Shown: in pieces, positions 12,113-56,601 of the stretch
Numbering within the stretch: position 1 is the stretch's first letter
How the letters are laid out: each line of letters opens with the position of its first letter
Source: Escherichia coli
Lineage (GTDB): Bacteria; Pseudomonadota; Gammaproteobacteria; Enterobacterales; Enterobacteriaceae
Reading direction: 5' to 3' (one strand)
Assembly (NCBI RefSeq): GCF_003790525.1
Contig: NZ_CP033635.1
Length of the DNA: 64,000 bases
The notes under the pieces: model-generated
What the model was told of the DNA's origin: nothing
Databases searched by the model: none
The model's input: the letters and a program-made list of their open reading frames with translations, nothing else
Made by a program: the position numbers and the translations under genes

Positions 12113-13463
12113 AAACCGTGCTCCGCGTCATTCGGAAAATGCCATACAGTACCAGGGCGATAACCGGCACCAGACCAATGGCGATGAGATTGCCGTTGAA
12201 GATTTCCAGCAGCCAGAAGCGGAACGGGTTACCGCCATCAAGGAAACTGGAAACCTGGCCGCTGGAGCCTTCGGCAAATTTGAAGTTAACGTCTTTCGCC
12301 ATTCCGGTAATAAACGGCGCGATTTTAGTGGCAATCCACAGGTCGGCAATAATCACCGGGATCGCCGCCAGAACGGTGCGGAAAATATTGCCACGGCTGG
12401 CTAAAGCAATCATCGACGCCATTACCGCCAGGTTGGCAAGGTCACCAAGCGGCAGGACTTCATTACCTGGGAGGACAAACGCGATAAAGACCGAGATTGG
12501 CGTCAGCAGCAGGGCGGTGGAGATAATCGCCGGGTTACCTACGGCAACGGCGATATCCAGGCCGATATAGAGATCGTCACGGTCAGGGTATTTGGCATTG
12601 AGATACTTTTTAATGGCTTCAGACAGCGGTAATAAACCTTCCATCAGGATGCGTACCATGCGTGGCAGGATGAACATCACACCGCCAATGCTGATGCCAA
12701 GCAGCAAGACTTTTTTGAAATCGTATCCGGCAATTACGCCGAGCAGAATGCCCAGAATAGTGCCAACCATCATCGGTTCGCCGAAGATGCCAAACTTTTT
12801 CTGTACGGTTTCCGGGTCGATATGAATACGATTGAGGCCAGGGATATGGTCGATGATTTTGTCGACCAGCAGACCGACCGGGAAGAACACCACCGAAGAG
12901 AGCGTCGGCAATGAGATCCCTTCCAGGCCAAAGTATTTTTGTACCAGTGGCGCAGACCAGTCGGCGAGTTTTAGCACCACCACTGCGGCAATCGCGGCCG
13001 CCAGCAAACCAAAGAACAGGCTGCCGGTGCTGTAATAAACCAGCGTACCGGCAAGGGCAAAATGCCAGTAGTTCCACATATCTACATCAACGGTGCGGGT
13101 TTTATTCAACGCCAGCATTGCGACATTAATCAGAATGGTCAGGGGAATAACAAACGGGGCAATTGGCGACCCCCAGGTAATGGCAGAAAGCGGCGGCCAG
13201 CCTAAATCCACCACCGGTAAATTAATTCCGGTGCGTTCAACCATCGCCTGGGCCGCTGGCCCGACATTGCTGGTAAGAATATCGAAAATGGCATAAATAC
13301 CGACAAAACCAATGCCGACCGTTAATGACGAGCGTAAGGCTTTAGCGGGTTTTACTTTAAAACAGAGAGCAAGAATAAATAACACCAACGGCAACATTAC
13401 CGTGGGGCCAAATCCCAATATATATTGCACAATATTATAGAGGGTATGCGCGATATCGTTCAT
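12105..13463 (-). CDS. PTS EIIC component, galactitol (Gat) family
   Basis: Multi-TM protein with GatC-like motifs (GPTVMLP, LGWPP...TWGS, FGEPMMVG). Start set at the ATG preceded by AAGAGG (13463) rather than the GTG at 13493. Confidence 0.85.
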   Translation of the reverse strand: MNDIAHTLYNIVQYILGFGPTVMLPLVLFILALCFKVKPAKALRSSLTVGIGFVGIYAIFDILTSNVGPAAQAMVERTGINLPVVDLGWPPLSAITWGSPIAPFVIPLTILINVAMLALNKTRTVDVDMWNYWHFALAGTLVYYSTGSLFFGLLAAAIAAVVVLKLADWSAPLVQKYFGLEGISLPTLSSVVFFPVGLLVDKIIDHIPGLNRIHIDPETVQKKFGIFGEPMMVGTILGILLGVIAGYDFKKVLLLGISIGGVMFILPRMVRILMEGLLPLSEAIKKYLNAKYPDRDDLYIGLDIAVAVGNPAIISTALLLTPISVFIAFVLPGNEVLPLGDLANLAVMASMIALASRGNIFRTVLAAIPVIIADLWIATKIAPFITGMAKDVNFKFAEGSSGQVSSFLDGGNPFRFWLLEIFNGNLIAIGLVPVIALVLYGIFRMTRSTVYA

Positions 13464-13536
13464 AATAAACCTCTTTTTCAGGCGAGAGCGCACCTCGCGT
13501 TAGCGCCTGATGGAGTGGGTTGGAATTAATTATTAA

Positions 13537-13818
13537 TTACTTTTTAAGAATCGAAACAATTTGCGCCAGCACTTTCTCTTCGCCAATACCGGTAATAATG
13601 GGTAAGCCGTTAACCACCGGCACGTCGAGTTCATAAGGCACTTTAGTCGTTGAAACAACCAGCGCTACGCCGTCGGTATTACCGGGTAAAGAGGCAACGT
13701 TGGTTTGGGAATAATTGACGTTAAGGCCGTGCTCTTTGCAATACTCCATGACTTTTTCTGTTACCGCCGTGGATGTGGCAATACCTGTGGCGCAGACAAA
13801 TAAAATGGTTTGACTCAT
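13537..13818 (-). CDS. PTS EIIB component, galactitol family
   Basis: 93 aa; phosphorylation-site Cys in LFVCATGIATS; start overlaps the EIIA stop. Confidence 0.85.
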   Translation of the reverse strand: MSQTILFVCATGIATSTAVTEKVMEYCKEHGLNVNYSQTNVASLPGNTDGVALVVSTTKVPYELDVPVVNGLPIITGIGEEKVLAQIVSILKK

Positions 13819-14288
13819 ATTTCACCTCGTTCATTCATTTTGTTTAAGATTACTGTGTGTATTTCTGTTGTTTCCATCGTAAGCAAGGCTTGCATAAAGG
13901 GCGTATCCTGAATCATCTCCATAATCCAGCCCAGGGCATTTAATTGTTTGTTACTTTCGCTTAAGGCGAGCAAAAAAATCACCCTGACAGGCACGGGATC
14001 AGGGTCGCCGCCCATATCGGCAAACTCTACCGGCTCTGGCAAAATACCGACGGCAATTGCATTGTGCCGGACATGTTTATGGTCCGTGTGCGGAATGGCG
14101 ACGCACGGTGGTTCGGTAGGCAGCCCCGTTGGATACGTCGCCTCACGTTTCAGTACGTGATTGGCAAAATCAGGGACCACCAGCTCAGCAGCAACCAACG
14201 GTTGCGCTAACTGACGGATGATCTGTTCAACGCTTAACCCTGCCGGAAGTCGTTGAATATAATTTTCCTGAAACTGTATGCCTTGCAT
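13815..14288 (-). CDS. PTS EIIA component (type-2 EIIA fold, GatA-like)
   Basis: About 157 aa with a conserved His region (AIPHTDH). Start placed at the second ATG, which has a GAGGAA RBS; the ORF track extends to 14300. Confidence 0.8.
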   Translation of the reverse strand: MQGIQFQENYIQRLPAGLSVEQIIRQLAQPLVAAELVVPDFANHVLKREATYPTGLPTEPPCVAIPHTDHKHVRHNAIAVGILPEPVEFADMGGDPDPVPVRVIFLLALSESNKQLNALGWIMEMIQDTPFMQALLTMETTEIHTVILNKMNERGEI

Positions 14289-14312
14289 TTTATTCCTCAT
14301 AAAAAAGTGTAT

Positions 14313-15068
14313 TTAACTCACTTCCCGCCGTTGCAGCACGGTGCCCAGATAATATTTATTTCCTTTTAACCAGACGTTGCCAAACTCAACGGGTAACTCT
14401 CGGGAGAAAAAGACTAACTGCTCCAGATGCAAAACGGGTGCATCTTCACTGATATCTAAAAAATGACCGCGTTCATTACCAATTAATCGCGCGGCATAGC
14501 GACTTTCCGAGTAACGAATTTTTCTTTGCGACAAACTTTCTATTGTTGGAAATAAATTGTGTTGATTAAAATCGATTTCCACGATGCCGGGGCATAGCTC
14601 AATATTGATACGGTTCTCTATCAGCATCGCTTTTTCATCACCAATTGAACGTAAACGCTCAAGGTAAAGAATATCCTGACCGGGCGTTATTCTTAATTTC
14701 TCTGCCACATAACGATTAGCCGGTTCAATCCGTGACGTAATAACTTCAGTGGTAAAATGTATTTTCTGGCTTTCCAGCGATTCCGCGAATGACAATAATC
14801 CTTCACCTAACGGATATGCCACGTTCTCTTTTTTGACAAAAGTTCCCTTCCCCTGGACCTGAATCAACACGCCTTCTTTTACCAGTTGGGCGACCGCTTT
14901 TTTAACGGTTCCCCGACTCACTTCCAGCATATCCATAATCTGGTATTCCGAAGGAATGCGATCGTCTTCCACCAGATCCCCGGTATAAATACTTTCTCTT
15001 ATCCACTCCACCACTTGTTGATAGAGCGGTATTTGTGACGACTTACTTAATGATTTCATGGCGCGCAC
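14313..15068 (-). CDS. GntR/HutC-family transcriptional regulator with UTRA effector domain; probable regulator of the adjacent PTS operon
   Basis: 251 aa; N-terminal wHTH (SEYQIMDMLEVSRGTVKKAVAQLVKEGVL) and C-terminal UTRA-like domain. Confidence 0.85.
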   Translation of the reverse strand: MRAMKSLSKSSQIPLYQQVVEWIRESIYTGDLVEDDRIPSEYQIMDMLEVSRGTVKKAVAQLVKEGVLIQVQGKGTFVKKENVAYPLGEGLLSFAESLESQKIHFTTEVITSRIEPANRYVAEKLRITPGQDILYLERLRSIGDEKAMLIENRINIELCPGIVEIDFNQHNLFPTIESLSQRKIRYSESRYAARLIGNERGHFLDISEDAPVLHLEQLVFFSRELPVEFGNVWLKGNKYYLGTVLQRREVS

Positions 15069-25710: not shown

Positions 25711-26019
25711 ATGGATTATTTAATTCCAGTTTGTCTGGCATTGCTGGGATTGCTCGCGATCTTCACCCCCAATTGGCTGATCCCTGTTTTTATCGTCGTG
25801 GGGGGATGGCTGGGGGTACTTGCCTGGGGTTGGCTCTGGCTAATGATTTTTTTACCTTTACTTAACGGTGTCGGGCTTGCTTATGCCCTGTGGTTGATGT
25901 TCAAAAGGCCATCCATAGCATCCCGCCTGGTTGCTGCATGCTGTGTTATCTCCGTCATTCTGATGTTAGCGCTTTATTATGCTTTCCTGACTATGCCGCC
26001 GTTCCCGCCTCAGCACTAA
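25711..26019 (+). CDS. Hypothetical small hydrophobic protein (about 3 TM helices, Trp-rich) in the tusA-zntA gap
   Basis: 102-aa ORF with a weak RBS between two convergent genes, next to REP repeats; could be spurious. Confidence 0.3.
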   Translation: MDYLIPVCLALLGLLAIFTPNWLIPVFIVVGGWLGVLAWGWLWLMIFLPLLNGVGLAYALWLMFKRPSIASRLVAACCVISVILMLALYYAFLTMPPFPPQH

Positions 26020-42141: not shown

Positions 42142-42888
42142 ATGCATTATGCCGTTGTTGTCATGCTTGAACTGCTTTGCTGTATTCACGCTTACCGTAC
42201 CGGACAAGAGCGGTACTGGATTTTTATCATTTTCTGTTTTCCGGTGATTGGCTGCGTGGCGTATTTCGTCATAGTGATGTTGCCTGAAACGGGCGCTGAC
42301 CGTCACGGGCATACTTTGCTGATGCGCCTGCAGGACAAACTCAACCCTGAGCGCCACCTGCGCAAATTAACCGAAGAACTGGCGATTGCCGAGACGAATC
42401 AAAACCATTATGCGTTGGCTAATGAACTGGTGTGTCTGGGGCGTTATCACGAAGCTGTTCCCCATTATCAGCAGGCGTTAAGCGGGATATTCGTCCATGA
42501 AGCGGCAATGATGCTAAGCCTGGCGCAGGCGCAGTTTGCCATTCAGGAGTTCGCCGCCTGTCAGCAGACGCTGGAAGATGTGATGCGTTATAACCCCGAT
42601 TTTCAGTCGGCAGACGGGCATTTGTTATTTGCCAGAGCGTTAGCCGCACAAGAAAAATACGCTGATGCGGAAAGCGAGTTTGAGGTGTTGATTTCTTATT
42701 ACTCCGGCCCGCAGGCGCGTATTTACTATGCGGAAATGTTGGCGAAAATGAGTCGGTTACGTGAAGCCAACGAGCAGTATATTGCTGTGGTTGATACGGC
42801 TAAACGTTCAAAACCACATTATAGAAAACACCACCGGGAATGGATTAAGACCGCCAATGAACGGCTGAAGCAGAGTGTGGTGCAATGA
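42142..42888 (+). CDS. Hypothetical membrane-anchored protein: N-terminal PLDc_N-like two-helix anchor plus C-terminal helical-repeat (TPR-like) domain
   Basis: 248-aa ORF; N-terminus RYWIFIIFCFPVIGCVAYFV resembles PLD-nuclease N-terminal membrane domains; the remainder is predicted alpha-helical. Not present between livF and ugpB in the K-12 order as I recall it. Confidence 0.6.
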   Translation: MHYAVVVMLELLCCIHAYRTGQERYWIFIIFCFPVIGCVAYFVIVMLPETGADRHGHTLLMRLQDKLNPERHLRKLTEELAIAETNQNHYALANELVCLGRYHEAVPHYQQALSGIFVHEAAMMLSLAQAQFAIQEFAACQQTLEDVMRYNPDFQSADGHLLFARALAAQEKYADAESEFEVLISYYSGPQARIYYAEMLAKMSRLREANEQYIAVVDTAKRSKPHYRKHHREWIKTANERLKQSVVQ

Positions 42889-43247: not shown

Positions 43248-44564
43248 ATGAAACCGTTACGTTATACAGCTTCAGCACTGGCGCTCGGACTGGCTTTAAT
43301 GGCAAATGCGCAGGCAGCGACGACCATTCCGTTCTGGCATTCTATGGAAGGGGAACTGGGTAAAGAGGTGGATTCTCTGGCCCAACGTTTTAACGCCGAA
43401 AACCCGGATTACAAAATTGTACCGACCTATAAAGGCAACTACGAACAGAATTTAAGCGCGGGGATTGCCGCATTTCGTACCGGCAACGCTCCGGCTATTT
43501 TGCAGGTTTATGAAGTTGGCACCGCCACCATGATGGCGTCGAAAGCCATTAAACCGGTATATGACGTGTTTAAAGAGGCGGGGATTCAGTTCGATGAGTC
43601 GCAGTTTGTGCCGACGGTTTCAGGCTACTACTCCGACAGCAAAACTGGGCACTTACTCTCCCAGCCGTTCAACAGCTCGACTCCCGTTCTCTATTACAAC
43701 AAAGACGCCTTCAAGAAAGCCGGTTTAGACCCGGAACAGCCGCCGAAAACCTGGCAGGATCTGGCGGACTATGCCGCGAAACTGAAAGCCTCCGGTATGA
43801 AGTGCGGCTACGCCAGCGGCTGGCAGGGCTGGATCCAACTGGAAAACTTTAGCGCCTGGAACGGTCTGCCGTTTGCCAGCAAAAACAACGGCTTTGACGG
43901 CACAGACGCGGTGCTGGAGTTCAACAAGCCGGAGCAGGTGAAACACATCGCTATGCTCGAAGAGATGAACAAGAAGGGCGATTTCAGCTACGTCGGGCGT
44001 AAGGATGAATCCACCGAGAAGTTCTATAACGGTGATTGCGCGATGACGACCGCCTCTTCCGGTTCTCTTGCCAACATTCGCGAGTACGCCAAATTTAACT
44101 ATGGCGTAGGCATGATGCCTTACGATGCCGATGCGAAAGACGCGCCGCAAAACGCCATTATCGGCGGAGCCAGTCTATGGGTAATGCAGGGTAAAGATAA
44201 AGAAACCTACACCGGCGTGGCGAAGTTCCTCGACTTCCTCGCAAAGCCAGAAAACGCTGCCGAGTGGCATCAGAAAACCGGCTATCTGCCAATCACTAAA
44301 GCGGCGTATGACCTGACCCGTGAGCAGGGCTTTTACGAGAAAAACCCAGGAGCGGATATTGCCACGCGTCAGATGCTGAACAAGCCACCGTTGCCGTTCA
44401 CCAAAGGTTTGCGTCTGGGCAACATGCCGCAGATCCGCGTGATTGTGGATGAAGAGCTGGAGAGCGTGTGGACCGGTAAGAAGACACCACAGCAGGCGCT
44501 GGATACTGCCGTTGAGCGTGGGAACCAGTTACTGCGCCGCTTTGAGAAATCGACGAAGTCTTAA
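43248..44564 (+). CDS. ugpB: sn-Glycerol-3-phosphate-binding periplasmic protein UgpB
   Basis: 438 aa with signal peptide; SBP family 1. Confidence 0.95.
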
Positions 44565-44572
44565 TCAGTGTA

Positions 44573-44641
44573 ATGTCGGATGCGTTTCGCTTATCTGACC
44601 TGGCATCGCGTGTAGGCCGGATAAGCGAAGCGCATCCGGCA
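44573..44641. repeat. REP/BIME element between ugpB and ugpA
   Basis: GTAGGCCGGATAAGCGAAGCGCATCCGGCA and a partner unit. Confidence 0.75.
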
Positions 44642-44661
44642 CAGTTCAGGAATTAACTGTA

Positions 44662-45549
44662 ATGTCATCATCCCGTCCGGTGTTCCGCTCGCGCTGGCTG
44701 CCTTATCTGCTGGTCGCGCCGCAGCTCATCATCACCGTTATCTTTTTTATCTGGCCTGCGGGCGAAGCGTTGTGGTACTCGCTGCAAAGTGTCGATCCAT
44801 TTGGTTTCTCCAGCCAGTTTGTCGGCCTGGATAACTTCGTCACGCTGTTTCACGACAGCTACTATCTCGACGCCTTCTGGACGACGATAAAATTCAGCAC
44901 CTTTGTCACCGTCAGCGGTTTGCTGGTGTCACTGTTCTTCGCGGCGTTGGTGGAGTACATCGTGCGCGGCAGCCGTTTCTATCAAACCTTAATGCTGCTG
45001 CCGTATGCCGTGGCTCCCGCCGTTGCCGCCGTATTATGGATCTTCCTGTTTAACCCCGGTCGCGGGCTGATCACCCATTTTCTCGCTGAGTTCGGCTACG
45101 ACTGGAACCACGCGCAAAACAGCGGTCAGGCGATGTTCCTGGTGGTGTTTGCCTCAGTGTGGAAGCAAATCAGCTACAACTTTCTGTTCTTCTATGCCGC
45201 GCTGCAATCCATCCCCCGTTCGTTGATCGAAGCCGCAGCCATTGATGGGGCTGGCCCGATTCGCCGCTTCTTTAAGATTGCGCTGCCGCTTATCGCTCCG
45301 GTGAGTTTCTTCCTGCTGGTGGTGAACCTGGTGTATGCCTTCTTCGACACCTTCCCGGTGATCGACGCCGCCACGTCCGGCGGGCCAGTACAGGCCACCA
45401 CGACGCTGATTTATAAGATCTACCGTGAAGGCTTTACCGGACTGGATTTGGCTTCGTCTGCCGCGCAGTCGGTGGTGTTGATGTTCCTCGTCATCGTGCT
45501 GACGGTGGTGCAGTTCCGCTATGTTGAAAGCAAGGTACGTTACCAATGA
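44662..45549 (+). CDS. ugpA: G3P ABC permease UgpA
   Basis: 295 aa; MalF-type permease with EAA loop. Confidence 0.93.
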
Positions 45550-46391
45550 TTGAGAACCGTCCGTGGCTGACAATATTCAGCCATACCATGCTGATCCTCG
45601 GGATCGCGGTGATCCTCTTCCCGCTGTACGTGGCGTTTGTCGCGGCGACACTGGATAAACAAGAAGTCTATGCCGCGCCGATGACGCTAATCCCCGGCAC
45701 ACATCTGCTGGAAAACATCCACAACATCTGGGTAAACGGGGTAGGCACGAATAGTGCGCCGTTCTGGCGGATGTTGCTTAACAGCTTCGTGATGGCGTTC
45801 AGCATTACGCTCGGCAAAATTACCGTCTCGATGCTCTCGGCATTTGCCATTGTCTGGTTTCGTTTTCCGCTACGTAACCTCTTCTTCTGGATGATTTTTA
45901 TCACCCTGATGCTGCCGGTTGAAGTGCGTATCTTCCCGACGGTGGAAGTCATCGCTAACCTGAAAATGCTCGACAGCTACGCAGGTTTAACGCTGCCGCT
46001 GATGGCCTCGGCGACCGCGACCTTCCTGTTCCGCCAGTTCTTTATGACGCTGCCGGATGAGCTGGTGGAAGCGGCGCGGATCGACGGTGCGTCACCAATG
46101 CGTTTCTTTTGCGACATCGTTTTTCCGCTGTCCAAAACTAATCTGGCGGCGCTGTTTGTGATCACCTTTATTTACGGCTGGAACCAGTATTTGTGGCCGT
46201 TGTTGATTATTACCGATGTGGATCTCGGCACCACCGTAGCAGGGATTAAAGGGATGATCGCCACAGGCGAAGGCACCACGGAATGGAACTCGGTGATGGC
46301 GGCGATGTTGTTAACCCTGATCCCACCAGTAGTGATTGTTTTAGTGATGCAGCGTGCCTTCGTGCGCGGCCTGGTCGATAGTGAGAAATAA
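45546..46391 (+). CDS. ugpE: G3P ABC permease UgpE
   Basis: 281 aa; MalG-type permease. Confidence 0.93.
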
Positions 46392-46392
46392 G

Positions 46393-47463
46393 ATGGCAGG
46401 ACTGAAATTACAGGCAGTAACCAAAAGCTGGGATGGCAAAACCCAGGTCATTAAACCGCTGACCCTTGATGTGGCGGATGGCGAATTTATCGTGATGGTC
46501 GGGCCGTCTGGCTGCGGGAAATCGACGTTATTGCGAATGGTGGCCGGACTGGAGCGGGTAACGACGGGCGATATCTGGATCGACCGCAAGCGTGTCACCG
46601 AAATGGAGCCGAAAGATCGCGGAATTGCGATGGTGTTCCAGAACTACGCGCTCTATCCGCATATGAGCGTAGAGGAGAACATGGCGTGGGGGCTGAAAAT
46701 TCGCGGCATGGGCAAGCAACAAATTGCCGAACGTGTTAAAGAAGCGGCGCGCATTCTGGAGCTGGACGGCCTGCTTAAGCGCCGCCCGCGTGAGCTATCT
46801 GGCGGTCAGCGTCAGCGTGTGGCGATGGGGCGTGCGATTGTGCGTGAGCCGGCAGTGTTCCTGTTTGATGAGCCGCTCTCTAACCTCGATGCCAAGCTGC
46901 GTGTGCAGATGCGTCTTGAACTGCAACAGCTGCACCGTCGCCTGAAAACGACTTCACTCTACGTTACCCACGATCAGGTTGAGGCGATGACGCTCGCCCA
47001 GCGAGTAATGGTGATGAACGGCGGCGTTGCCGAACAGATTGGCACGCCAGTGGAAGTCTACGAAAAGCCCGCCAGCCTGTTTGTAGCGAGTTTTATCGGC
47101 AGCCCGGCGATGAACCTACTGGCTGGCCGCGTGAATAACGAAGGTACGCATTTCGAACTGGATGGTGGTATTACGCTGCCGCTAAACGGTGGCTACCGTC
47201 AGTATGCCGGGCGTAAAATGACCCTCGGCATTCGCCCGGAACATATAGCGCTAAGCTCGCAGGCAGAAGGTGGTGTGCCGCTGGTGATGGACACGCTGGA
47301 GATCCTCGGCGCAGATAACCTGGCGCACGGACGCTGGGGCGAACAGAAGCTGGTGGTGCGACTGGCACATCAGGAGCGCCCGACGGCAGGCAGCACGCTG
47401 TGGCTGCATCTGCCGGAAAATCAGCTACATCTTTTTGATGGTGAAACAGGACAACGAGTATGA
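46393..47463 (+). CDS. ugpC: G3P ABC ATPase UgpC
   Basis: Start at MAGLKLQAV (356 aa); Walker [10 protein letters not shown]. Confidence 0.93.
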
Positions 47464-48203
47464 GTAACTGGCCTTATCCCCGCATCGTCGCCCATCGTGG
47501 CGGCGGTAAACTGGCCCCGGAGAACACCCTGGCAGCAATCGACGTCGGGGCAAAATACGGTCATAAGATGATCGAATTTGACGCGAAGTTATCGAAAGAT
47601 GGCGAGATCTTCCTGCTCCATGACGACAATCTTGAACGCACCAGCAACGGCTGGGGCGTCGCGGGCGATCTGAACTGGCAGGATTTACTGCGCGTGGATG
47701 CAGGCAGTTGGTACAGCAAAGCGTTTAAAGGTGAGCCACTGCCGTTGCTTTCGCAGGTGGCGGAACGTTGTCGCAAACACGGGATGATGGCGAATATCGA
47801 AATCAAACCCACCACTGGCACCGGGCCATTAACGGGCAAAATGGTGGCGCTGGCGGCACGCGAACTGTGGGCCGGAATGACGCCGCCGCTGCTGTCATCG
47901 TTTGAGATTGATGCTTTAGACGCCGCGCAACAAGCAGTACCAGAACTGCCGCGCGGTTTATTGCTTGATGAGTGGCGCGACGACTGGCGAGAATTGACCG
48001 CGCGACTGGGCTGCGTCTCTATTCATCTCAATCATAAGTTGCTCGATAAAGCGCGAGTGATGCAGTTGAAAGACGCCGGATTACGGATTCTGGTTTATAC
48101 CGTCAATAAACCCCAGCGCGCGGCAGAGTTGCTGCGCTGGGGCGTGGATTGCATCTGTACCGATGCGATTGATGTGATTGGTCCGAACTTTACGGCCCAA
48201 TAG
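47460..48203 (+). CDS. ugpQ: Glycerophosphodiester phosphodiesterase UgpQ
   Basis: 247 aa; GP-PDE motif HRGG at the N-terminus. Confidence 0.93.
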
Positions 48204-48630
48204 TTTTCAACGGTATATCAGGCTGCGGCGTGCCGGGTTGATTCAGCATGTCGCCGTTTCTCCTCTCCGGCAACATATGCTGCTGATTCAACGAACTATC
48301 CGGATTACGGTTGCTGTTTAACATCCCGCCATTGGTGTTGGGCAGCATTTGCTGCCGGGCGGGATTTCGCTCCCCCGGCTGTGACTGCAACACCCGCTGA
48401 GAATTATTGTTTATCTGGTTTTCTAAATGCTGTTGTTGCAACTGAGTTTGCGTTTTCAGTTGCTGATTCAGCATCCCTTTTTGCTGGATTTGCTGCGTTT
48501 GCATTTGGGTTTGCATCCGCTGCTGACTGGGGATCTGATACCCCGGCTGGTTAGGGTTGTTCAGAGTATTAATGGGCTGTGCAAAGCCGACAAACGGCAG
48601 GAGTGCCGTTAGAATCAGAAGTCGTTTCAT
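48190..48630 (-). CDS. yhhA: Gln-rich secreted protein YhhA (DUF2756)
   Basis: 146 aa; signal peptide and Q-rich low-complexity region; 3' end overlaps ugpQ by 14 nt on the opposite strand. Confidence 0.8.
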
Positions 48631-48749
48631 CGCGTATCCTCCTCTGAAGATATTCTTTAAGTTTACTCCTTTCCTGCAATCATCAGGATTAATTCAGAGT
48701 TATATACCAGGCTTAGCTGGGGTTGCCCCTTAATCTCTGGAGAATAACG

Positions 48750-50495
48750 ATGATAAAACCGACGTTTTTACGCCGGGTGGCCATTGCTGCTCTGTTCACA
48801 GGAAGTTGTTTTAGTACGGTAGCCGCGCCACCTGCGCCGTCTCCTGTTTCTTACGGCGTGGAGGAAGATGTCTTTCATCCGGTACGCGCGAAACAGGGGA
48901 TGGTGGCGTCTGTCGATGCCACTGCCACCCAAGTGGGGGTAGATATTCTAAAGGAGGGCGGGAATGCCGTTGATGCTGCCGTGGCAGTGGGCTACGCGCT
49001 GGCGGTAACGCATCCGCAGGCAGGAAATTTGGGCGGTGGTGGTTTTATGCTGATCCGCTCGAAAAATGGCAATACCACCGCTATCGATTTCCGCGAAATG
49101 GCACCCGCCAAAGCGACCCGCGATATGTTCCTTGATGATCAGGGCAACCCGGACAGCAAAAAATCACTCACTTCGCATCTGGCTTCTGGTACGCCCGGTA
49201 CGGTAGCAGGTTTCTCGCTGGCGTTGGAGAAGTACGGCACCATGCCGTTGAACAAAGTGGTGCAACCGGCGTTTAAACTGGCACGCGATGGTTTTATCGT
49301 TAACGACGCGTTGGCTGACGATCTCAAAACCTACGGTAGCGAAGTATTGCCGAATCACGAAAACAGCAAGGCTATCTTCTGGAAAGAGGGCGCGCCGCTG
49401 AAAAAGGGTGACAAGCTGGTGCAGGCGAACCTGGCAAAGAGCCTGGAGATGATTGCCGAAAACGGCCCGGACGAATTCTACAAAGGCACGATAGCGGAAC
49501 AGATTGCCCAGGAGATGCAGAAAAACGGTGGCTTGATCACTAAAGAAGATTTAGCGGCGTATAAAGCGGTCGAACGTACACCGATTAGCGGCGAATATCG
49601 CGGGTATCAGGTTTACTCGATGCCACCGCCATCTTCCGGTGGGATTCATATCGTGCAGATCCTCAATATCCTGGAAAACTTCGATATGAAGAAATATGGC
49701 TTTGGCAGTGCCGACGCGATGCAAATCATGGCAGAAGCTGAGAAATACGCCTACGCCGACCGCTCGGAATATCTTGGCGATCCGGATTTTGTCAAAGTAC
49801 CGTGGCAGGCGCTGACCAATAAAGCCTATGCCAAATCTATTGCCGATCAAATCGATATCAATAAAGCGAAGCCATCCAGCGAAATTCGCCCCGGCAAGCT
49901 TGCGCCTTATGAGAGTAATCAAACTACCCATTACTCAGTGGTGGATAAAGACGGTAACGCGGTGGCGGTGACCTATACGCTGAACACCACCTTCGGTACG
50001 GGCATTGTCGCGGGCGAGAGCGGTATTCTGCTTAATAACCAGATGGATGATTTCTCCGCCAAACCGGGCGTACCGAACGTTTACGGGCTGGTGGGCGGCG
50101 ATGCCAACGCCGTCGGGCCGAATAAACGCCCGCTGTCGTCGATGTCACCAACCATTGTGGTCAAGGATGGTAAAACCTGGCTGGTCACCGGAAGCCCAGG
50201 CGGTAGCCGGATTATCACCACTGTGCTGCAAATGGTGGTGAATAGCATCGATTATGGAATGAACGTCGCCGAAGCGACCAATGCGCCGCGTTTCCACCAT
50301 CAGTGGTTGCCGGACGAGCTGCGTGTCGAAAAAGGGTTTAGCCCGGATACGATCAAGCTGCTGGAAGCAAAAGGTCAGAAAGTGGCGCTGAAAGAGGCGA
50401 TGGGCAGTACACAAAGCATTATGGTTGGGCCGGACGGTGAGCTGTACGGTGCATCCGACCCACGCTCGGTGGATGATTTAACTGCGGGGTATTAA
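48750..50495 (+). CDS. ggt: Gamma-glutamyltranspeptidase
   Basis: Start at MIKPTFLRR; signal peptide; autoprocessing Thr in QTTHYSV; GGT family. Confidence 0.95.
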   Translation: MIKPTFLRRVAIAALFTGSCFSTVAAPPAPSPVSYGVEEDVFHPVRAKQGMVASVDATATQVGVDILKEGGNAVDAAVAVGYALAVTHPQAGNLGGGGFMLIRSKNGNTTAIDFREMAPAKATRDMFLDDQGNPDSKKSLTSHLASGTPGTVAGFSLALEKYGTMPLNKVVQPAFKLARDGFIVNDALADDLKTYGSEVLPNHENSKAIFWKEGAPLKKGDKLVQANLAKSLEMIAENGPDEFYKGTIAEQIAQEMQKNGGLITKEDLAAYKAVERTPISGEYRGYQVYSMPPPSSGGIHIVQILNILENFDMKKYGFGSADAMQIMAEAEKYAYADRSEYLGDPDFVKVPWQALTNKAYAKSIADQIDINKAKPSSEIRPGKLAPYESNQTTHYSVVDKDGNAVAVTYTLNTTFGTGIVAGESGILLNNQMDDFSAKPGVPNVYGLVGGDANAVGPNKRPLSSMSPTIVVKDGKTWLVTGSPGGSRIITTVLQMVVNSIDYGMNVAEATNAPRFHHQWLPDELRVEKGFSPDTIKLLEAKGQKVALKEAMGSTQSIMVGPDGELYGASDPRSVDDLTAGY

Positions 50496-50500
50496 TATCT

Positions 50501-50529
50501 TAAGCCCTCTCCCGGTAGGTGAGGGCTTA
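50501..50529. terminator. Bidirectional hairpin between the convergent ggt and yhhY genes (TAAGCCCTC/GAGGGCTTA)
   Basis: 9-bp inverted repeat with an 11-nt loop in a 60-bp gap. Confidence 0.55.
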
Positions 50530-50555
50530 AATGACAAACGTAGATTGCAAATTCT

Positions 50556-51044
50556 CTATTTCACCCGCGCCATATAATACGCATCGACATATTCACCATT
50601 ACGCAGCGCGTACTTCTTGCCAGTCCCTTCAATCTCAAAGCCAAATTTTTTATAGACCTTAATTGCTGGCGCGTTATCGACGAACACCGTTAGCTCAATA
50701 CGATCTACCCGCAACCAGTTGTCGCACATTTCAATCATCTCTCGCATCAGGGCGCTGGCGACGCCGCGGTTCTTCCAACGGGAGTCGACACAGATACCAA
50801 AGTCGGCAACATGACTGCGGTGTGGGCGTTGTTGCACGTCAATGGTGAGATGGCCTACGACGATTCCATCAATACAGGCGACTAACTGCTTGATGCCGGG
50901 GCGAGCGGTGAGTCGTTCCAGCCACATTTGTTCTGAAGGATGAGGCACCTGTAGCGTGTTGTAATACACCTCCGGCTGGGCGTGAATCTGCCTGATGGCC
51001 TCGTAATCGCGTGTTTCTGCGTGGCGTATTACTATCTCACTCAT
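50556..51044 (-). CDS. yhhY: GNAT-family N-acetyltransferase YhhY
   Basis: Start at MSEIVIRHA (162 aa); GNAT motifs. Confidence 0.88.
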   Translation of the reverse strand: MSEIVIRHAETRDYEAIRQIHAQPEVYYNTLQVPHPSEQMWLERLTARPGIKQLVACIDGIVVGHLTIDVQQRPHRSHVADFGICVDSRWKNRGVASALMREMIEMCDNWLRVDRIELTVFVDNAPAIKVYKKFGFEIEGTGKKYALRNGEYVDAYYMARVK

Positions 51045-51144
51045 TCCTTTGTCCTCTTTGGGGTAAATGTCCCTTTCAACATCATTGACTTTCAAATGCG
51101 AGTCAAATGCATTTTTTTGCAAAAAGTGTTGGACAAGTGCGAAT

Positions 51145-51163
51145 GAGAATGATTATTATTGTC
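51145..51163 (+). promoter_or_regulatory. Fur box overlapping the ryhB promoter
   Basis: GAGAATGATTATTATTGTC closely matches the Fur consensus and lies immediately 5' of the RyhB +1. Confidence 0.8.
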
Positions 51164-51165
51164 TC

Positions 51166-51255
51166 GCGATCAGGAAGACCCTCGCGGAGAACCTGAAAGC
51201 ACGACATTGCTCACATTGCTTCCAGTATTACTTAGCCAGCCGGGTGCTGGCTTTT
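51166..51255 (+). ncRNA. ryhB: Iron-responsive small RNA RyhB
   Basis: Sequence GCGATCAGGAAGACCCTCGCGGAGAACCTGAAAGCACGACATTGCTCACATTGCTTCCAGTATTACTTAGCCAGCCGGGTGCTGGCTTTT matches RyhB as I remember it, ending in an intrinsic terminator (AGCCAGC/GCTGGCT plus T9). Confidence 0.92.
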
Positions 51256-51377
51256 TTTTTGACCTTTCGTTCTCAATTTATCCTCGGGAAGTGCTTGTGT
51301 TCGTTATGCGCACTCCAGTAGGAACCACGTCCGCTTTGCGCTAAGGTGTAAATAACCACCTTAAAAAGGACGAAATC

Positions 51378-52415
51378 ATGGTCATTAACTGCGCCTTTAT
51401 TGGCTTCGGCAAAAGCACCACCCGTTACCATCTGCCGTATGTACTTAACCGCAAGGATAGCTGGCATGTCGCGCATATTTTTCGCCGCCATGCGAAGCCG
51501 GAAGAACAGGCCCCCATTTATTCCCATATCCATTTCACCAGCGATCTCGACGAAGTGCTAAACGATCCCGATGTTAAGCTGGTTGTCGTCTGCACCCACG
51601 CGGACAGCCACTTCGAGTACGCGAAGCGCGCGCTGGAAGCCGGGAAAAATGTGCTGGTCGAAAAACCGTTCACTCCGACAATTGCGCAGGCGAAAGAGCT
51701 GTTTGCACTGGCGAAAAGCAAAGGGCTGATCGTTACGCCGTATCAGAATCGTCGCTTTGATTCCTGTTTCCTGACAGCGAAAAAAGCGATTGAAAGCGGC
51801 AAGCTGGGAGAGATTGTCGAAGTGGAAAGCCATTTTGACTATTACCGCCCGGTGGCAGAAACCAAACCTGGGCTGCCGCAGGATGGCGCGTTCTATGGCC
51901 TTGGTGTGCATACGATGGACCAGATTATTTCTCTGTTCGGTCGCCCGGATCACGTCGCTTATGACATCCGCAGCCTGCGTAATAAAGCCAATCCGGACGA
52001 CACCTTTGAAGCGCAGCTGTTTTATGGCGATCTAAAAGCCATCGTCAAAACCAGCCATCTGGTGAAAATCGATTATCCGAAATTTATCGTTCACGGTAAG
52101 AAAGGTTCGTTTATTAAATACGGTATCGACCAGCAGGAAACCAGCCTGAAGGCTAATATTATGCCGGGCGAACCGGGATTCGCAGCGGATGATTCGGTCG
52201 GTGTGCTGGAGTATGTCAATGACGAGGGTGTGACGGTCAGAAAAGAGATGAAGCCGGAGGTGGGCGATTACGGGCGCGTTTATGATGCGTTGTATCAAAC
52301 CATCACCAACGGTGCGCCAAATTACGTCAAGGAATCTGAAGTTCTTACCAATTTGGAAATCCTTGAACGCGGTTTTGAGCAAGCCTCTCCCTCCACAGTG
52401 ACTCTCGCGAAGTAA
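51378..52415 (+). CDS. yhhX: Gfo/Idh/MocA-family NAD(P)-dependent oxidoreductase YhhX
   Basis: 345 aa; N-terminal Rossmann fold. Confidence 0.88.
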   Translation: MVINCAFIGFGKSTTRYHLPYVLNRKDSWHVAHIFRRHAKPEEQAPIYSHIHFTSDLDEVLNDPDVKLVVVCTHADSHFEYAKRALEAGKNVLVEKPFTPTIAQAKELFALAKSKGLIVTPYQNRRFDSCFLTAKKAIESGKLGEIVEVESHFDYYRPVAETKPGLPQDGAFYGLGVHTMDQIISLFGRPDHVAYDIRSLRNKANPDDTFEAQLFYGDLKAIVKTSHLVKIDYPKFIVHGKKGSFIKYGIDQQETSLKANIMPGEPGFAADDSVGVLEYVNDEGVTVRKEMKPEVGDYGRVYDALYQTITNGAPNYVKESEVLTNLEILERGFEQASPSTVTLAK

Positions 52416-52537
52416 GTTTGATGGCCCCTCGAATAGTTCAATTTTTTTGAACAGAGGGGTCAATTTTCACCCTCTATCATCCCAGGCAGATCGGGTCCAC
52501 ACTAAGCCCATCGAAAACATTCAGGGGGCGAATACAA

Positions 52538-53233
52538 ATGATCTACTTACGCAAAGCAAATGAACGTGGTCATGCAAATCATGGCTGGCTGGATTCCTGG
52601 CATACTTTCTCTTTTGCCAACTATTACGATCCGAACTTTATGGGCTTCTCCGCGCTGCGCGTGATTAACGACGACGTGATTGAAGCAGGGCAGGGCTTTG
52701 GCACTCACCCGCATAAAGATATGGAAATTTTGACCTACGTGCTGGAAGGTACTGTTGAGCACCAGGACAGCATGGGCAATAAAGAGCAGGTTCCGGCGGG
52801 TGAGTTCCAGATTATGAGTGCGGGTACGGGTATCCGTCACTCTGAGTACAACCCAAGCAGCACCGAGCGTCTGCATCTGTATCAGATCTGGATCATGCCT
52901 GAAGAAAACGGCATTACGCCGCGTTATGAACAGCGTCGCTTCGATGCCGTACAGGGCAAACAGCTGGTGCTCTCGCCGGATGCGCGAGATGGTTCGCTGA
53001 AAGTGCATCAGGATATGGAACTGTATCGTTGGGCATTGCTGAAAGATGAGCAGTCGGTGCATCAGATTGCCGCTGAACGCCGCGTCTGGATCCAGGTGGT
53101 GAAAGGCAATGTCACCATTAACGGCGTGAAAGCCTCGACCAGCGATGGTCTGGCAATCTGGGATGAGCAGGCAATCTCCATTCATGCGGATAGCGACAGC
53201 GAAGTGTTACTGTTCGATCTGCCGCCGGTTTAA
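52538..53233 (+). CDS. yhhW: Pirin-like cupin, quercetin 2,3-dioxygenase YhhW
   Basis: 231 aa; metal-binding His residues of the pirin family (HPH...H). Confidence 0.88.
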   Translation: MIYLRKANERGHANHGWLDSWHTFSFANYYDPNFMGFSALRVINDDVIEAGQGFGTHPHKDMEILTYVLEGTVEHQDSMGNKEQVPAGEFQIMSAGTGIRHSEYNPSSTERLHLYQIWIMPEENGITPRYEQRRFDAVQGKQLVLSPDARDGSLKVHQDMELYRWALLKDEQSVHQIAAERRVWIQVVKGNVTINGVKASTSDGLAIWDEQAISIHADSDSEVLLFDLPPV

Positions 53234-53456
53234 AACTCAACGGCATCTTTGAAGCCTGCCTTTTTGCAGGCTTCCTCGCTCGCTCCGGTCGCGTGCTGAT
53301 GTACGCGACCGGGGTTTTGCCGCGTCGTTAGCACAATGCGATGCAATTGATTTAGTGTATATCTAATAATTGTAAACAAGCACTGTTTTCCCCGGGAAGG
53401 TTCTGAGGCGTCCGTGTTAAACTAAAAGAATCTATCTCTTTTGTACCTTCAGGACG

Positions 53457-54452
53457 ATGAAAAAGAAAAGACCCGTACTTCAGGATGTGGCTGACCGTGT
53501 AGGCGTGACCAAAATGACGGTCAGCCGTTTTTTACGCAACCCGGAGCAGGTTTCCGTCGCTCTACGCGGCAAGATTGCCGCCGCTCTTGATGAACTGGGT
53601 TATATTCCCAATCGCGCACCCGATATCCTCTCTAACGCCACCAGCCGGGCGATTGGCGTCCTGTTACCTTCTCTCACCAACCAGGTTTTTGCGGAAGTAT
53701 TACGCGGAATCGAAAGCGTCACCGACGCGCACGGTTATCAGACCATGCTGGCCCACTACGGTTATAAACCGGAAATGGAGCAAGAACGCCTCGAATCCAT
53801 GCTCTCCTGGAATATCGACGGCCTGATCCTCACTGAACGTACGCACACGCCGCGCACCTTAAAGATGATTGAAGTGGCGGGGATTCCAGTGGTGGAACTG
53901 ATGGACAGCAAGTCGCCGTGCCTCGATATTGCCGTCGGTTTTGATAACTTTGAAGCGGCACGCCAGATGACCACCGCCATTATTGCTCGCGGGCATCGCC
54001 ACATTGCCTATCTCGGCGCACGTCTCGACGAACGTACTATCATCAAACAGAAGGGATACGAACAGGCGATGCTGGATGCAGGCCTGGTGCCATATAGCGT
54101 GATGGTTGAGCAATCTTCTTCTTACTCTTCCGGTATTGAATTGATTCGCCAGGCGAGGCGGGAATATCCGCAGCTGGATGGCGTGTTCTGTACTAATGAT
54201 GACCTGGCGGTCGGCGCGGCGTTTGAATGCCAGCGTCTGGGGTTGAAAGTTCCTGACGATATGGCGATTGCCGGTTTCCATGGTCATGACATTGGTCAGG
54301 TGATGGAACCTCGGTTGGCGAGCGTACTGACGCCGCGTGAGCGGATGGGCAGTATTGGCGCTGAACGCCTGCTGGCGCGTATTCGTGGCGAATCTGTGAC
54401 ACCGAAAATGTTAGATTTAGGTTTCACCTTGTCACCGGGCGGATCTATTTAA
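53457..54452 (+). CDS. gntR: Gluconate repressor GntR (LacI family)
   Basis: 331 aa; N-terminal HTH (LQDVADRVGVTKMTVSRFL) plus periplasmic-binding-protein-like fold. Confidence 0.93.
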   Translation: MKKKRPVLQDVADRVGVTKMTVSRFLRNPEQVSVALRGKIAAALDELGYIPNRAPDILSNATSRAIGVLLPSLTNQVFAEVLRGIESVTDAHGYQTMLAHYGYKPEMEQERLESMLSWNIDGLILTERTHTPRTLKMIEVAGIPVVELMDSKSPCLDIAVGFDNFEAARQMTTAIIARGHRHIAYLGARLDERTIIKQKGYEQAMLDAGLVPYSVMVEQSSSYSSGIELIRQARREYPQLDGVFCTNDDLAVGAAFECQRLGLKVPDDMAIAGFHGHDIGQVMEPRLASVLTPRERMGSIGAERLLARIRGESVTPKMLDLGFTLSPGGSI

Positions 54453-54531
54453 GCCCACAAATTTGAAGTAGCTCACACTTATACACTTAAGGCACGGATG
54501 GATATTGCTTCTGATATTGTCCGGCTGGACA

Positions 54532-54560
54532 ATGTTACCGATAACAGTTACCCGTAACAT
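54532..54560 (+). promoter_or_regulatory. GntR operator(s) in the gntKU promoter (ATGTTACCGATAACAGTTACCCGTAACAT)
   Basis: Characteristic GntR palindromic operator read directly, about 30 bp upstream of gntK. Confidence 0.75.
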
Positions 54561-54590
54561 TTTTAATTCTTGTATTGTGGGGGCACCACT

Positions 54591-55118
54591 TTGAGCACGA
54601 CTAACCATGATCACCACATTTACGTCTTGATGGGCGTATCGGGCAGCGGCAAATCTGCGGTCGCCAGTGAAGTGGCGCATCAACTTCATGCCGCGTTTCT
54701 TGATGGCGATTTCCTCCATCCGCGCTGCAATATCGAAAAAATGGCGTCTGGCGAACCGCTGAATGACGACGATCGCAAACCGTGGTTGCAGGCGCTGAAC
54801 GACGCCGCGTTTGCTATGCAGCGCACTAATAAAGTGTCGCTGATTGTCTGTTCTGCACTGAAAAAACACTATCGTGACCTGCTACGCGCGGGTAATCCGA
54901 ATCTCTCTTTCATCTACCTGAAAGGCGATTTTGATGTGATTGAAAGCCGCCTGAAAGCGCGCAAAGGCCATTTCTTTAAAACCCAAATGTTGGTGACGCA
55001 GTTTGAAACGCTGCAGGAGCCGGGTGCGGACGAAACCGATGTACTGGTGGTAGATATCGATCAACCGCTGGAAGGTGTTGTGGCAAGCACCATTGAGGTT
55101 ATTAAAAAAGGCAAATAA
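54591..55118 (+). CDS. gntK: Thermoresistant gluconokinase GntK
   Basis: TTG start giving MSTTNHDHHIYVLMGVSGSGKS (175 aa); P-loop kinase. Confidence 0.9.
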   Translation: MSTTNHDHHIYVLMGVSGSGKSAVASEVAHQLHAAFLDGDFLHPRCNIEKMASGEPLNDDDRKPWLQALNDAAFAMQRTNKVSLIVCSALKKHYRDLLRAGNPNLSFIYLKGDFDVIESRLKARKGHFFKTQMLVTQFETLQEPGADETDVLVVDIDQPLEGVVASTIEVIKKGK

Positions 55119-55121
55119 GTA

Positions 55122-56462
55122 GTGACTACATTAACGCTTGTTTTAACAGCAGTAGGGTCTGTTTTACTGCTGCTGTTTTTAGTCATGAAGGCGCGTATGC
55201 ACGCTTTCCTGGCTTTAATGGTGGTGTCTATGGGGGCTGGCCTTTTTTCCGGTATGCCGCTCGATAAAATCGCAGCGACGATGGAAAAAGGGATGGGAGG
55301 CACCCTCGGCTTCCTGGCGGTGGTTGTCGCCCTGGGAGCCATGTTTGGCAAGATCTTACATGAAACCGGCGCAGTCGATCAGATTGCCGTCAAAATGCTC
55401 AAATCCTTCGGTCACAGCCGCGCGCATTATGCCATCGGCCTTGCGGGGCTGGTCTGTGCGCTGCCGTTGTTCTTTGAAGTGGCGATTGTTCTGCTGATTA
55501 GCGTTGCTTTCTCAATGGCGCGCCACACCGGTACGAACCTGGTGAAGCTGGTAATCCCATTATTTGCAGGCGTGGCGGCCGCTGCTGCGTTCCTGGTGCC
55601 TGGACCAGCGCCAATGCTGCTGGCATCGCAGATGAACGCCGACTTTGGCTGGATGATCCTGATTGGCCTGTGTGCGGCAATTCCGGGAATGATTATTGCC
55701 GGGCCGCTGTGGGGTAATTTCATCAGCCGCTACGTGGAGCTGCATATTCCTGACGACATCAGCGAACCGCATCTCGGCGAAGGCAAAATGCCATCTTTCG
55801 GATTCAGCCTGTCGCTGATCCTGTTGCCGCTGGTGCTGGTAGGGCTGAAAACCATTGCCGCGCGTTTTGTGCCAGAAGGCTCTACCGCTTACGAATGGTT
55901 CGAGTTTATTGGTCATCCGTTTACCGCGATTCTGGTTGCTTGTCTGGTAGCGATTTATGGCCTGGCAATGCGTCAGGGCATGCCGAAAGATAAAGTGATG
56001 GAAATTTGCGGTCACGCGCTGCAACCGGCGGGGATCATTCTGCTGGTGATTGGTGCGGGCGGCGTATTCAAACAGGTGCTGGTTGACTCTGGCGTAGGTC
56101 CGGCACTGGGCGAAGCGTTAACCGGCATGGGCCTGCCGATTGCCATCACCTGCTTCGTGCTGGCAGCTGCAGTGCGCATCATTCAGGGTTCTGCCACCGT
56201 TGCCTGTTTAACGGCGGTGGGACTGGTGATGCCGGTTATTGAACAACTGAACTACTCCGGTGCGCAAATGGCGGCGCTGTCGATTTGTATCGCCGGTGGT
56301 TCGATTGTTGTCAGCCACGTTAACGACGCGGGTTTCTGGTTGTTCGGTAAATTTACCGGCGCGACCGAAGCCGAAACGCTGAAAACCTGGACCATGATGG
56401 AAACCATACTCGGCACTGTTGGTGCCATCGTTGGGATGATTGCGTTCCAGCTGTTGAGTTAA
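55122..56462 (+). CDS. gntU: Low-affinity gluconate:H+ symporter GntU
   Basis: 446 aa; GntP family. Confidence 0.93.
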   Translation: MTTLTLVLTAVGSVLLLLFLVMKARMHAFLALMVVSMGAGLFSGMPLDKIAATMEKGMGGTLGFLAVVVALGAMFGKILHETGAVDQIAVKMLKSFGHSRAHYAIGLAGLVCALPLFFEVAIVLLISVAFSMARHTGTNLVKLVIPLFAGVAAAAAFLVPGPAPMLLASQMNADFGWMILIGLCAAIPGMIIAGPLWGNFISRYVELHIPDDISEPHLGEGKMPSFGFSLSLILLPLVLVGLKTIAARFVPEGSTAYEWFEFIGHPFTAILVACLVAIYGLAMRQGMPKDKVMEICGHALQPAGIILLVIGAGGVFKQVLVDSGVGPALGEALTGMGLPIAITCFVLAAAVRIIQGSATVACLTAVGLVMPVIEQLNYSGAQMAALSICIAGGSIVVSHVNDAGFWLFGKFTGATEAETLKTWTMMETILGTVGAIVGMIAFQLLS

Positions 56463-56473
56463 TTACTGCGACA

Positions 56474-56501
56474 AATTACTGCGAGCTTGCTCGCAGTAAT
56501 T
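56474..56501 (+). terminator. gntU terminator hairpin (12-bp perfect stem AATTACTGCGAG/CTCGCAGTAATT, loop CTTG)
   Basis: Perfect inverted repeat 12 nt after the gntU stop, followed by a T-rich stretch. Confidence 0.6.
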
Positions 56502-56601
56502 CATTTCTCTTATCTCCTCTCTTCATCTTTTGGATCTCTCTCGCAAATTTACCTGCTAATAATCCGTTCTAATCACTGCCTAAAGATCGCAGGAGATAAA
56601 G

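Follow-up and report, generated by a model that had tools for sequence, protein, structure and literature searches.

Gene arrangement and control elements of the locus

The window, i.e., the whole stretch of 64,000 nucleotides of Escherichia coli that has been analyzed (contig NZ_CP033635.1 of assembly GCF_003790525.1), carries the sequence of the small RNA RyhB between two protein genes. Divergent from it on the minus strand is yhhY (50556..51044), assigned to the GNAT N-acetyltransferases in the RefSeq annotation of the SMS-3-5 locus and by the Pfam domain Acetyltransf_1, and co-oriented with it on the plus strand is yhhX (51378..52415), which encodes a GFO/IDH/MocA oxidoreductase and has its ATG 117 nt downstream of the ryhB terminator. 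An earlier note, made from the sequence, had placed the RNA between these two genes, and this position is confirmed by the ORFs, the SMS-3-5 annotation, and the K-12 record. The same location of ryhB between yhhX and yhhY is given in published work (PMC2189734, PMC3415461).

A consensus scan gave a -35 hexamer TGGACA (51130..51135, plus strand), located in a region conserved in the alignment of RyhB-1-type orthologues, and a -10 hexamer TATTAT (51154..51159, plus strand), which ends 7 nt before the 5' end of the RNA at 51166. This combination (TGGACA-18-TATTAT, 10 of 12 matches) is the sole sigma-70-like promoter found by the scan in positions 50900-51500. The main Fur box GAGAATGATTATTATTGTC (51145..51163) overlaps the -10 hexamer and extends to 3 nt before the transcription start. 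When compared with the Fur consensus GATAATGATAATCATTATC, it matches at 15 of 19 positions in the plus reading and at 16 of 19 in the minus reading, and it is the only site with at least 15/19 among approximately 128,000 19-mers on both strands of the 64-kb window. A near-consensus Fur box over the -10 region had been proposed in the earlier note, and the quoted sequence GAGAATGATTATTATTGTC is indeed found here, covers TATTAT, and is the top site in the window. A second Fur-like site GCGAATGAGAATGATTATT (51139..51157; 14/19) is shifted by 6 bp and overlaps the main box; in several Citrobacter and Enterobacter orthologues among the matches listed, the counterpart of this shifted site scores best. 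The Fur cluster at ryhB has been described as having 25.2 bits, being centred at -15, overlapping weaker sites, and binding Fur in gel shift (PMC2189734), and the two overlapping sites at 51145-51163 and 51139-51157 would fit this published arrangement of a strong site over weaker ones.

The ryhB transcript (51166..51260, plus strand) starts with G at 51166 and has two forms, a 90-nt form ending at 51255 and an annotated 95-nt form ending at 51260. Minimum free energy (MFE) folding gives a 5' stem-loop, SL1 (51166..51185, plus strand), which is the variable part of the RNA and lies outside the Rfam model, while the central stem-loop SL2 with the conserved pairing region (51201..51226, plus strand) is taken from the Rfam consensus structure. 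These are followed by an A/U-rich single-stranded linker AUUACUU (51227..51233, plus strand), as read from the sequence, by the terminator hairpin AGCCAGC-CGGGU-GCUGGCU (51234..51252, plus strand; 7 pairs, of which 5 are G-C, and a loop of 5), and by a T9 tract corresponding to the U-tail (51252..51260, plus strand), the first T of which also closes the stem. This stem-loop with its T run is the sole intrinsic-terminator-like site detected by scanning positions 50900-51500, and the hairpin and nine T reported for the gene end in the earlier note are thus present. The single-sequence fold of 51166-51260 has an MFE of -24.1 kcal/mol and, at a z-score of -0.67, is no more stable than shuffled sequences; this is usual for short sRNAs and was given no weight for or against the gene. 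An Hfq-binding module has been described as an internal U-rich stretch, a terminator hairpin, and a long 3' poly-U, with a tail of 9 U in RyhB (PMC4509938); we infer that the linker at 51227-51233, the hairpin, and the U-tail may form this module in the present copy. Since the start of the interval 51139-51260 that had been assigned to the element lies 27 nt upstream of the transcription start, it represents the promoter and the gene together.

Concerning other RNA genes, RyhB is the sole Rfam match at the gathering threshold in the window, in agreement with the earlier statement that it is the one clear RNA gene there. No tRNA or tmRNA genes were found in the window by ARAGORN, and in the homologous part of K-12 (glgB to yhiL), ryhB is the only ncRNA that the curated record lists. 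A permissive Rfam scan of 44000-58000 yielded a single further match, to snoTBR5, which was rejected as chance level (20.8 bits, the gathering score being 44; E = 0.43).

Identity with the reference allele and conservation in E. coli

Membership in the RyhB family was examined with Rfam 15 over the whole window. The match to RF00057 (51195-51259, plus strand) scores 83.1 bits, well above the gathering score of 55, with E = 3.6e-14; it spans the full model (positions 1-67 of 67) and is the same with permissive filters. With this E-value and with 100% identity to thousands of E. coli genomes, the match is well outside chance. A scripted exact search located the complete 90-nt RyhB sequence on the plus strand at 51166-51255, as had been claimed, and the 95-nt ncRNA ryhB in the curated record of K-12 MG1655 (b4451) maps to 51166-51260 with 0 differences. 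The element is therefore a known one, as the earlier note had stated; the comparison with Rfam proposed there gave the above score, and in the seed region, which it had singled out as the place where divergence from RyhB would matter most, 0 differences from K-12 were found across the whole pairing region.

The K-12 copy (RF00057) has the same flanks, yhhY and yhhX, in the same relative orientation, and departs from the window copy only in the downstream spacer toward yhhX. Over 51042-51262, which begins at the yhhY start codon and takes in the promoter, Fur boxes, RNA, and T9, there are 0 differences; the substitutions at 51263 and 51284 and the 1-nt indel at 51289 are all in the spacer between the terminator and yhhX. 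A 2-kb query of the locus is 100% identical to E. coli SMS-3-5 among others, and over its full 64 kb the window shows only 4 mismatches to SMS-3-5 (99.99% identity). The sequence at 51166-51260 on the plus strand is almost certainly the chromosomal ryhB of an E. coli strain nearly identical to SMS-3-5.

Conservation of the locus within the species was examined with complete genomes. The 2-kb query matches 5424 of 5426 complete E. coli genomes, and the promoter and RNA (136 nt) are at least 99% identical in 5413 of these 5424, whereas the whole 255-nt intergenic query reaches at least 99% identity in only 1552 genomes. Because the 136-nt part is near-invariant and the 255-nt query is not, the polymorphism is located in the 117-nt downstream spacer. 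Two of the 5426 genomes have no match to the locus, and a few match at two or three places. In one genome, NZ_CP195448.1, identity over the promoter and RNA is only 93.8% and the aligned span is longer, pointing to an insertion.

Several other segments of the window were recorded in the course of these comparisons. Relative to K-12, two overlapping plus-strand genes are inserted between yhgN and gntU at 56602-59900; these encode a RecQ-family helicase (56602-58698), which matches PADLOC PsyrT over its full length with 1058 bits, and a DprA/SLOG-domain protein (58605-59900), which matches PADLOC PsyrA with E = 5e-202. By these matches the pair is assigned as a PsyrTA (RqlHI-type) toxin-antitoxin/anti-phage defence pair, for which the RefSeq annotation is only generic. 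The stop codons of ggt and yhhY are 60 bp apart (50496-50555); in K-12 MG1655 a 3.4-kb island (yhhZ-yrhA::IS1E-yrhD-yrhB) is located between ggt and yhhY, and it is absent here and in SMS-3-5. After nikR, where K-12 has rhsB-yhhH-yrhC-yhhI, the window has at approximately 8773-15059 (coordinates transferred from the SMS-3-5 annotation) genes for a GntR-family regulator, PTS IIA/IIB/IIC, an FGGY kinase, an HPr-like protein, and a class II aldolase; behind these comes a hicB/hicA pair with a frame-shifted hicA. Also absent from K-12 are a gene for a tetratricopeptide-repeat protein between ugpB and livF (approximately 42142-42888) and one for a hypothetical protein of 102 aa between zntA and tusA (approximately 25711-26019).

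Pairing core and relatives in other genera

The conserved pairing core (…GCACGACAUUGCUCACAUUGCUUCCAGU…) is intact in the window copy and identical to that of K-12. Nucleotides 38-46 of RyhB (GACAUUGCU, 51203-51211) are an exact 9-nt complement of positions -4 to +5 of K-12 sodB, including the start codon; for these lengths approximately 0.03 such matches are expected by chance, the sodB sequence used being that of K-12. For whole-molecule pairing of RyhB with sodB -56 to +30, RNAduplex gave -34.3 kcal/mol, which 17 of 1000 shuffles equalled or exceeded, and because this predicted duplex unrealistically unfolds the terminator, we have relied on the exact 9-nt complement alone.

An exact-pattern scan for the 21-nt core CATTGCTCACATTGCTTCCAG, using one genome per species, gave at least 120 loci, and those among the matches listed belong to Enterobacterales, Vibrionaceae, and Aeromonadaceae. 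A Fur-like box of at least 14/19 is located upstream of 112 of the 121 core copies outside the window (among the matches listed), while the chance expectation of such a site, calculated from the window's own score distribution, is approximately 0.015 per 140-nt stretch. In enteric RyhB-1-type copies among the matches listed, the Fur box lies about 57-70 nt before the core, and the corresponding distance in the window copy is 60 nt.

By aligning 78 distinct sequences with MAFFT, a conserved block of promoter and Fur box, a variable 5' segment, an invariant core, and then a terminator were observed. Since the core columns were set by the search pattern, invariance there is uninformative, and the SL2 columns are likewise invariant, partly by the search pattern, so that no covariation signal is possible in them. 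The bases GCACGA (51199-51204), located 5' of the search pattern, are invariant or nearly so in the 78 aligned sequences without such selection. The SL1 segment varies in sequence and length among genera, and the alignment is too gappy there to score covariation. In the terminator stem, pairing holds for 90.1% of cells across the 78 orthologues and paralogues, as against 29-53% when the partners are slid, and compensatory double changes occur in 27 cells, as against 6.6 ± 2.1 in shuffles.

Gene order was examined by tblastn of the YhhX and YhhY of the window. Among the matches listed, the order yhhY-ryhB-yhhX is kept in E. albertii, Citrobacter, Enterobacter, Klebsiella, Lelliottia, Pseudescherichia, and Superficieibacter, and linkage to yhhY alone extends to Yersinia, Pantoea, Serratia, and Mixta. 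Paralogues of the RyhB-2/IsrE type in Salmonella, Klebsiella, Enterobacter, and Citrobacter carry the invariant core ACGACATTGCTCACATTGCTTCCAGT as does the window copy, and like it they have a promoter covered by a Fur-like box and a poly-U hairpin terminator. They differ from it in having their own 5' segment (…CCGAATAGTTGAG…), their own Fur box variant GATAAAGATTATCTTTCTC, a terminator stem of the GCCCGC/GCCCAC type, and another locus without yhhY or yhhX. Such copies have been described as ryhB-2 in Klebsiella (PMC3415461) and as RyhB paralogues in Salmonella (PMC9860832). The window copy can clearly be assigned to the orthologous RyhB-1 type.

In Vibrio, Aliivibrio, and Photobacterium, RyhB has the 21-nt core and an upstream Fur-like box in common with the window copy, while its synteny is unlike that of the window locus. 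Many Vibrio copies have the Fur box 107-138 nt upstream of the core and a T run 33-84 nt downstream, whereas these distances in the window are 60 and 26 nt; this spacing implies that many Vibrio RyhB RNAs would be much longer than the RyhB of the window. Salinivibrio sharmensis has two RyhB core copies in tandem on one contig, about 300 nt apart (L070, 11702-12028), each with its own Fur-like box 69 nt upstream, as if the sRNA gene had been duplicated in tandem. PrrF1 and PrrF2 of Pseudomonas are Fur-repressed sRNAs that repress mRNAs of iron-using proteins (sodB, sdh) and are functional analogues of RyhB. They are not known to share sequence homology with RyhB, are placed in another Rfam family, and are regarded as analogues, not as family members.

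Mechanism, read-through into yhhX, and significance

The present analysis covers sequence identity, family membership, the anatomy of promoter, Fur boxes, and terminator, conservation, and complementarity to sodB, and what is said on occupancy by Fur, the response of expression to iron, Hfq binding, and decay through RNase E comes from the literature. Because the allele is identical to that of K-12, the mechanism known for K-12 is considered to carry over to the window copy. In published work, Fe2+-Fur represses ryhB, and iron starvation lifts this repression; together with its cofactor Hfq, RyhB pairs with approximately 20 mRNAs of iron-using proteins, including sodB and sdhC, blocks target translation, and stimulates breakdown of the mRNAs by the RNase E degradosome (PMC8544716). 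The K-12 allele is induced by iron limitation or in a fur mutant, and an RNA of about 90 nt then accumulates (PMC8544716, PMC4509938). Hfq binding and RNase E-dependent decay coupled with that of the targets have also been reported in the RyhB literature (PMC8544716, PMC6191717).

When placed on the coordinates of the window, this scheme would operate as follows. Under sufficient iron, Fe2+-Fur dimers on the overlapping boxes at 51139-51163 would cover the -10 hexamer and the start site and exclude RNA polymerase. When iron is scarce, Fur would leave the DNA, and an RNA of about 90-95 nt would be made from 51166 and end in the U-tract after the hairpin at 51234-51252. The hairpin, the 3' poly-U, and the A/U-rich linker would bind Hfq, by which RyhB would be stabilized, and the invariant central region at about 51199-51226 would pair with mRNAs of non-essential iron-using proteins where their translation is initiated. 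The expected targets are sodB, sdhCDAB, acnB, fumA, ftnA, bfr, iscSUA, and others. Pairing would block ribosome binding and recruit the RNase E degradosome, so that the sRNA and mRNA would be degraded together, while a few targets, such as shiA and cirA, would be activated instead. The net outcome would be that scarce iron is kept for essential enzymes.

A rival reading, current before RyhB was discovered, takes the element as primarily a Fur-regulated promoter and leader for yhhX, with the hairpin and T9 as an attenuator and the short RNA as a by-product; the Fur site was originally assigned to yhhX by in-vivo selection (cited in PMC2189734). The arrangement has features that suit such a role, since yhhX is co-oriented and starts 117 nt past T9, and no promoter-like site was found at the scan threshold in the spacer 51261-51377 between T9 and the yhhX ATG, which is compatible with transcription of yhhX by read-through from the ryhB promoter (PMC8896160). 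About 20% of polymerases pass the ryhB terminator, as measured in reporter constructs (PMC4509938), and yhhX mRNA is up under iron limitation only with the ryhB promoter present (PMC8896160). As the primary function, however, this is very improbable: the trans-pairing core is kept without a downstream yhhX in RyhB-2-type copies and in Yersinia, Pantoea, Vibrio, and Aeromonas among the matches listed, the distance from core to yhhX ranges from about 95 to about 1480 nt among the listed loci with both, which speaks against a conserved leader, and the trans-acting function of RyhB has been established experimentally (PMC8544716). The promoter and leader role has some truth as a secondary one and cannot be primary; read-through is best regarded as a supplement to what the sRNA does, and not as a competing explanation. 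It is quite possible, although we lean slightly against it, that the ryhB promoter and Fur boxes serve doubly in Escherichia, partial read-through of T9 making yhhX induced by iron limitation in a small sRNA-mRNA operon. Published transcript data hint at such ryhB-yhhX read-through (PMC8896160, PMC4509938), and the variable spacing in other genera suggests that it is not a conserved design. Since 3'-extended RyhB loses Hfq binding (PMC4509938), the extended form, if this double use is true, would act solely as a yhhX leader.

The earlier note had also stated that no ORF explains the interval. ORFs do cross it mechanically (84 aa at 51067-51321 and 61 aa at 51159-51344 on the plus strand, and 34 aa at 51103-51207 on the minus strand), and the statement holds in the sense that none of them is annotated. 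That one of these encodes a small protein has practically no probability: ATG is absent within the RyhB RNA, both plus-strand ORFs cross the terminator and are frame-shifted in K-12 by the 1-nt indel at 51289, and the curated K-12 record, in which very small proteins nearby (yhgO, yhgP, yhiY) and even proteins of 9-13 aa are listed, has no protein at ryhB. The conservation is also RNA-like: the core is invariant, the stem shows compensation, and the 5' part is rich in indels that alter its length by other than multiples of three. The protein-coding reading of the crossing ORFs is rejected, the frames not being conserved in K-12. Equally negligible is the idea of a decayed or silent copy, or of a chance resemblance, with no functional RyhB gene. 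No support for a decayed copy or for chance was found in the analysis, and opposed to both are the Rfam E-value of 3.6e-14, the identity with the functional allele of K-12 over promoter, Fur box, RNA, and terminator, and the presence of ryhB as a single copy at its ancestral position in 5424 of the 5426 complete genomes of E. coli, apart from the few with two or three places. Both are effectively refuted by the sequence identity. The sequence is thus read as an intact ryhB gene.

Among regulators of the bacterial iron economy, RyhB is a textbook case. It is the link through which Fur indirectly "activates" iron-using proteins, and its effects extend to the biogenesis of Fe-S clusters, the production of siderophores, tolerance of antibiotics, and virulence. 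The RyhB found here is already known and is present as the reference allele with known control elements, and the locus leaves the current understanding unchanged. In RefSeq/PGAP records there is no feature over ryhB, and in SMS-3-5 the series of locus tags from yhhY to yhhX omits RS18805. Because the curated K-12 record annotates an ncRNA at the same position, the missing feature is regarded as a gap in the RefSeq/PGAP annotation. The intact ryhB shows only that this strain has the standard circuit, and the chief use of the result is for annotation: the PGAP/RefSeq records of most E. coli genomes, SMS-3-5 included, have no feature there, so that views built on ORFs leave ryhB blank, and the coordinates presented here fill this gap.
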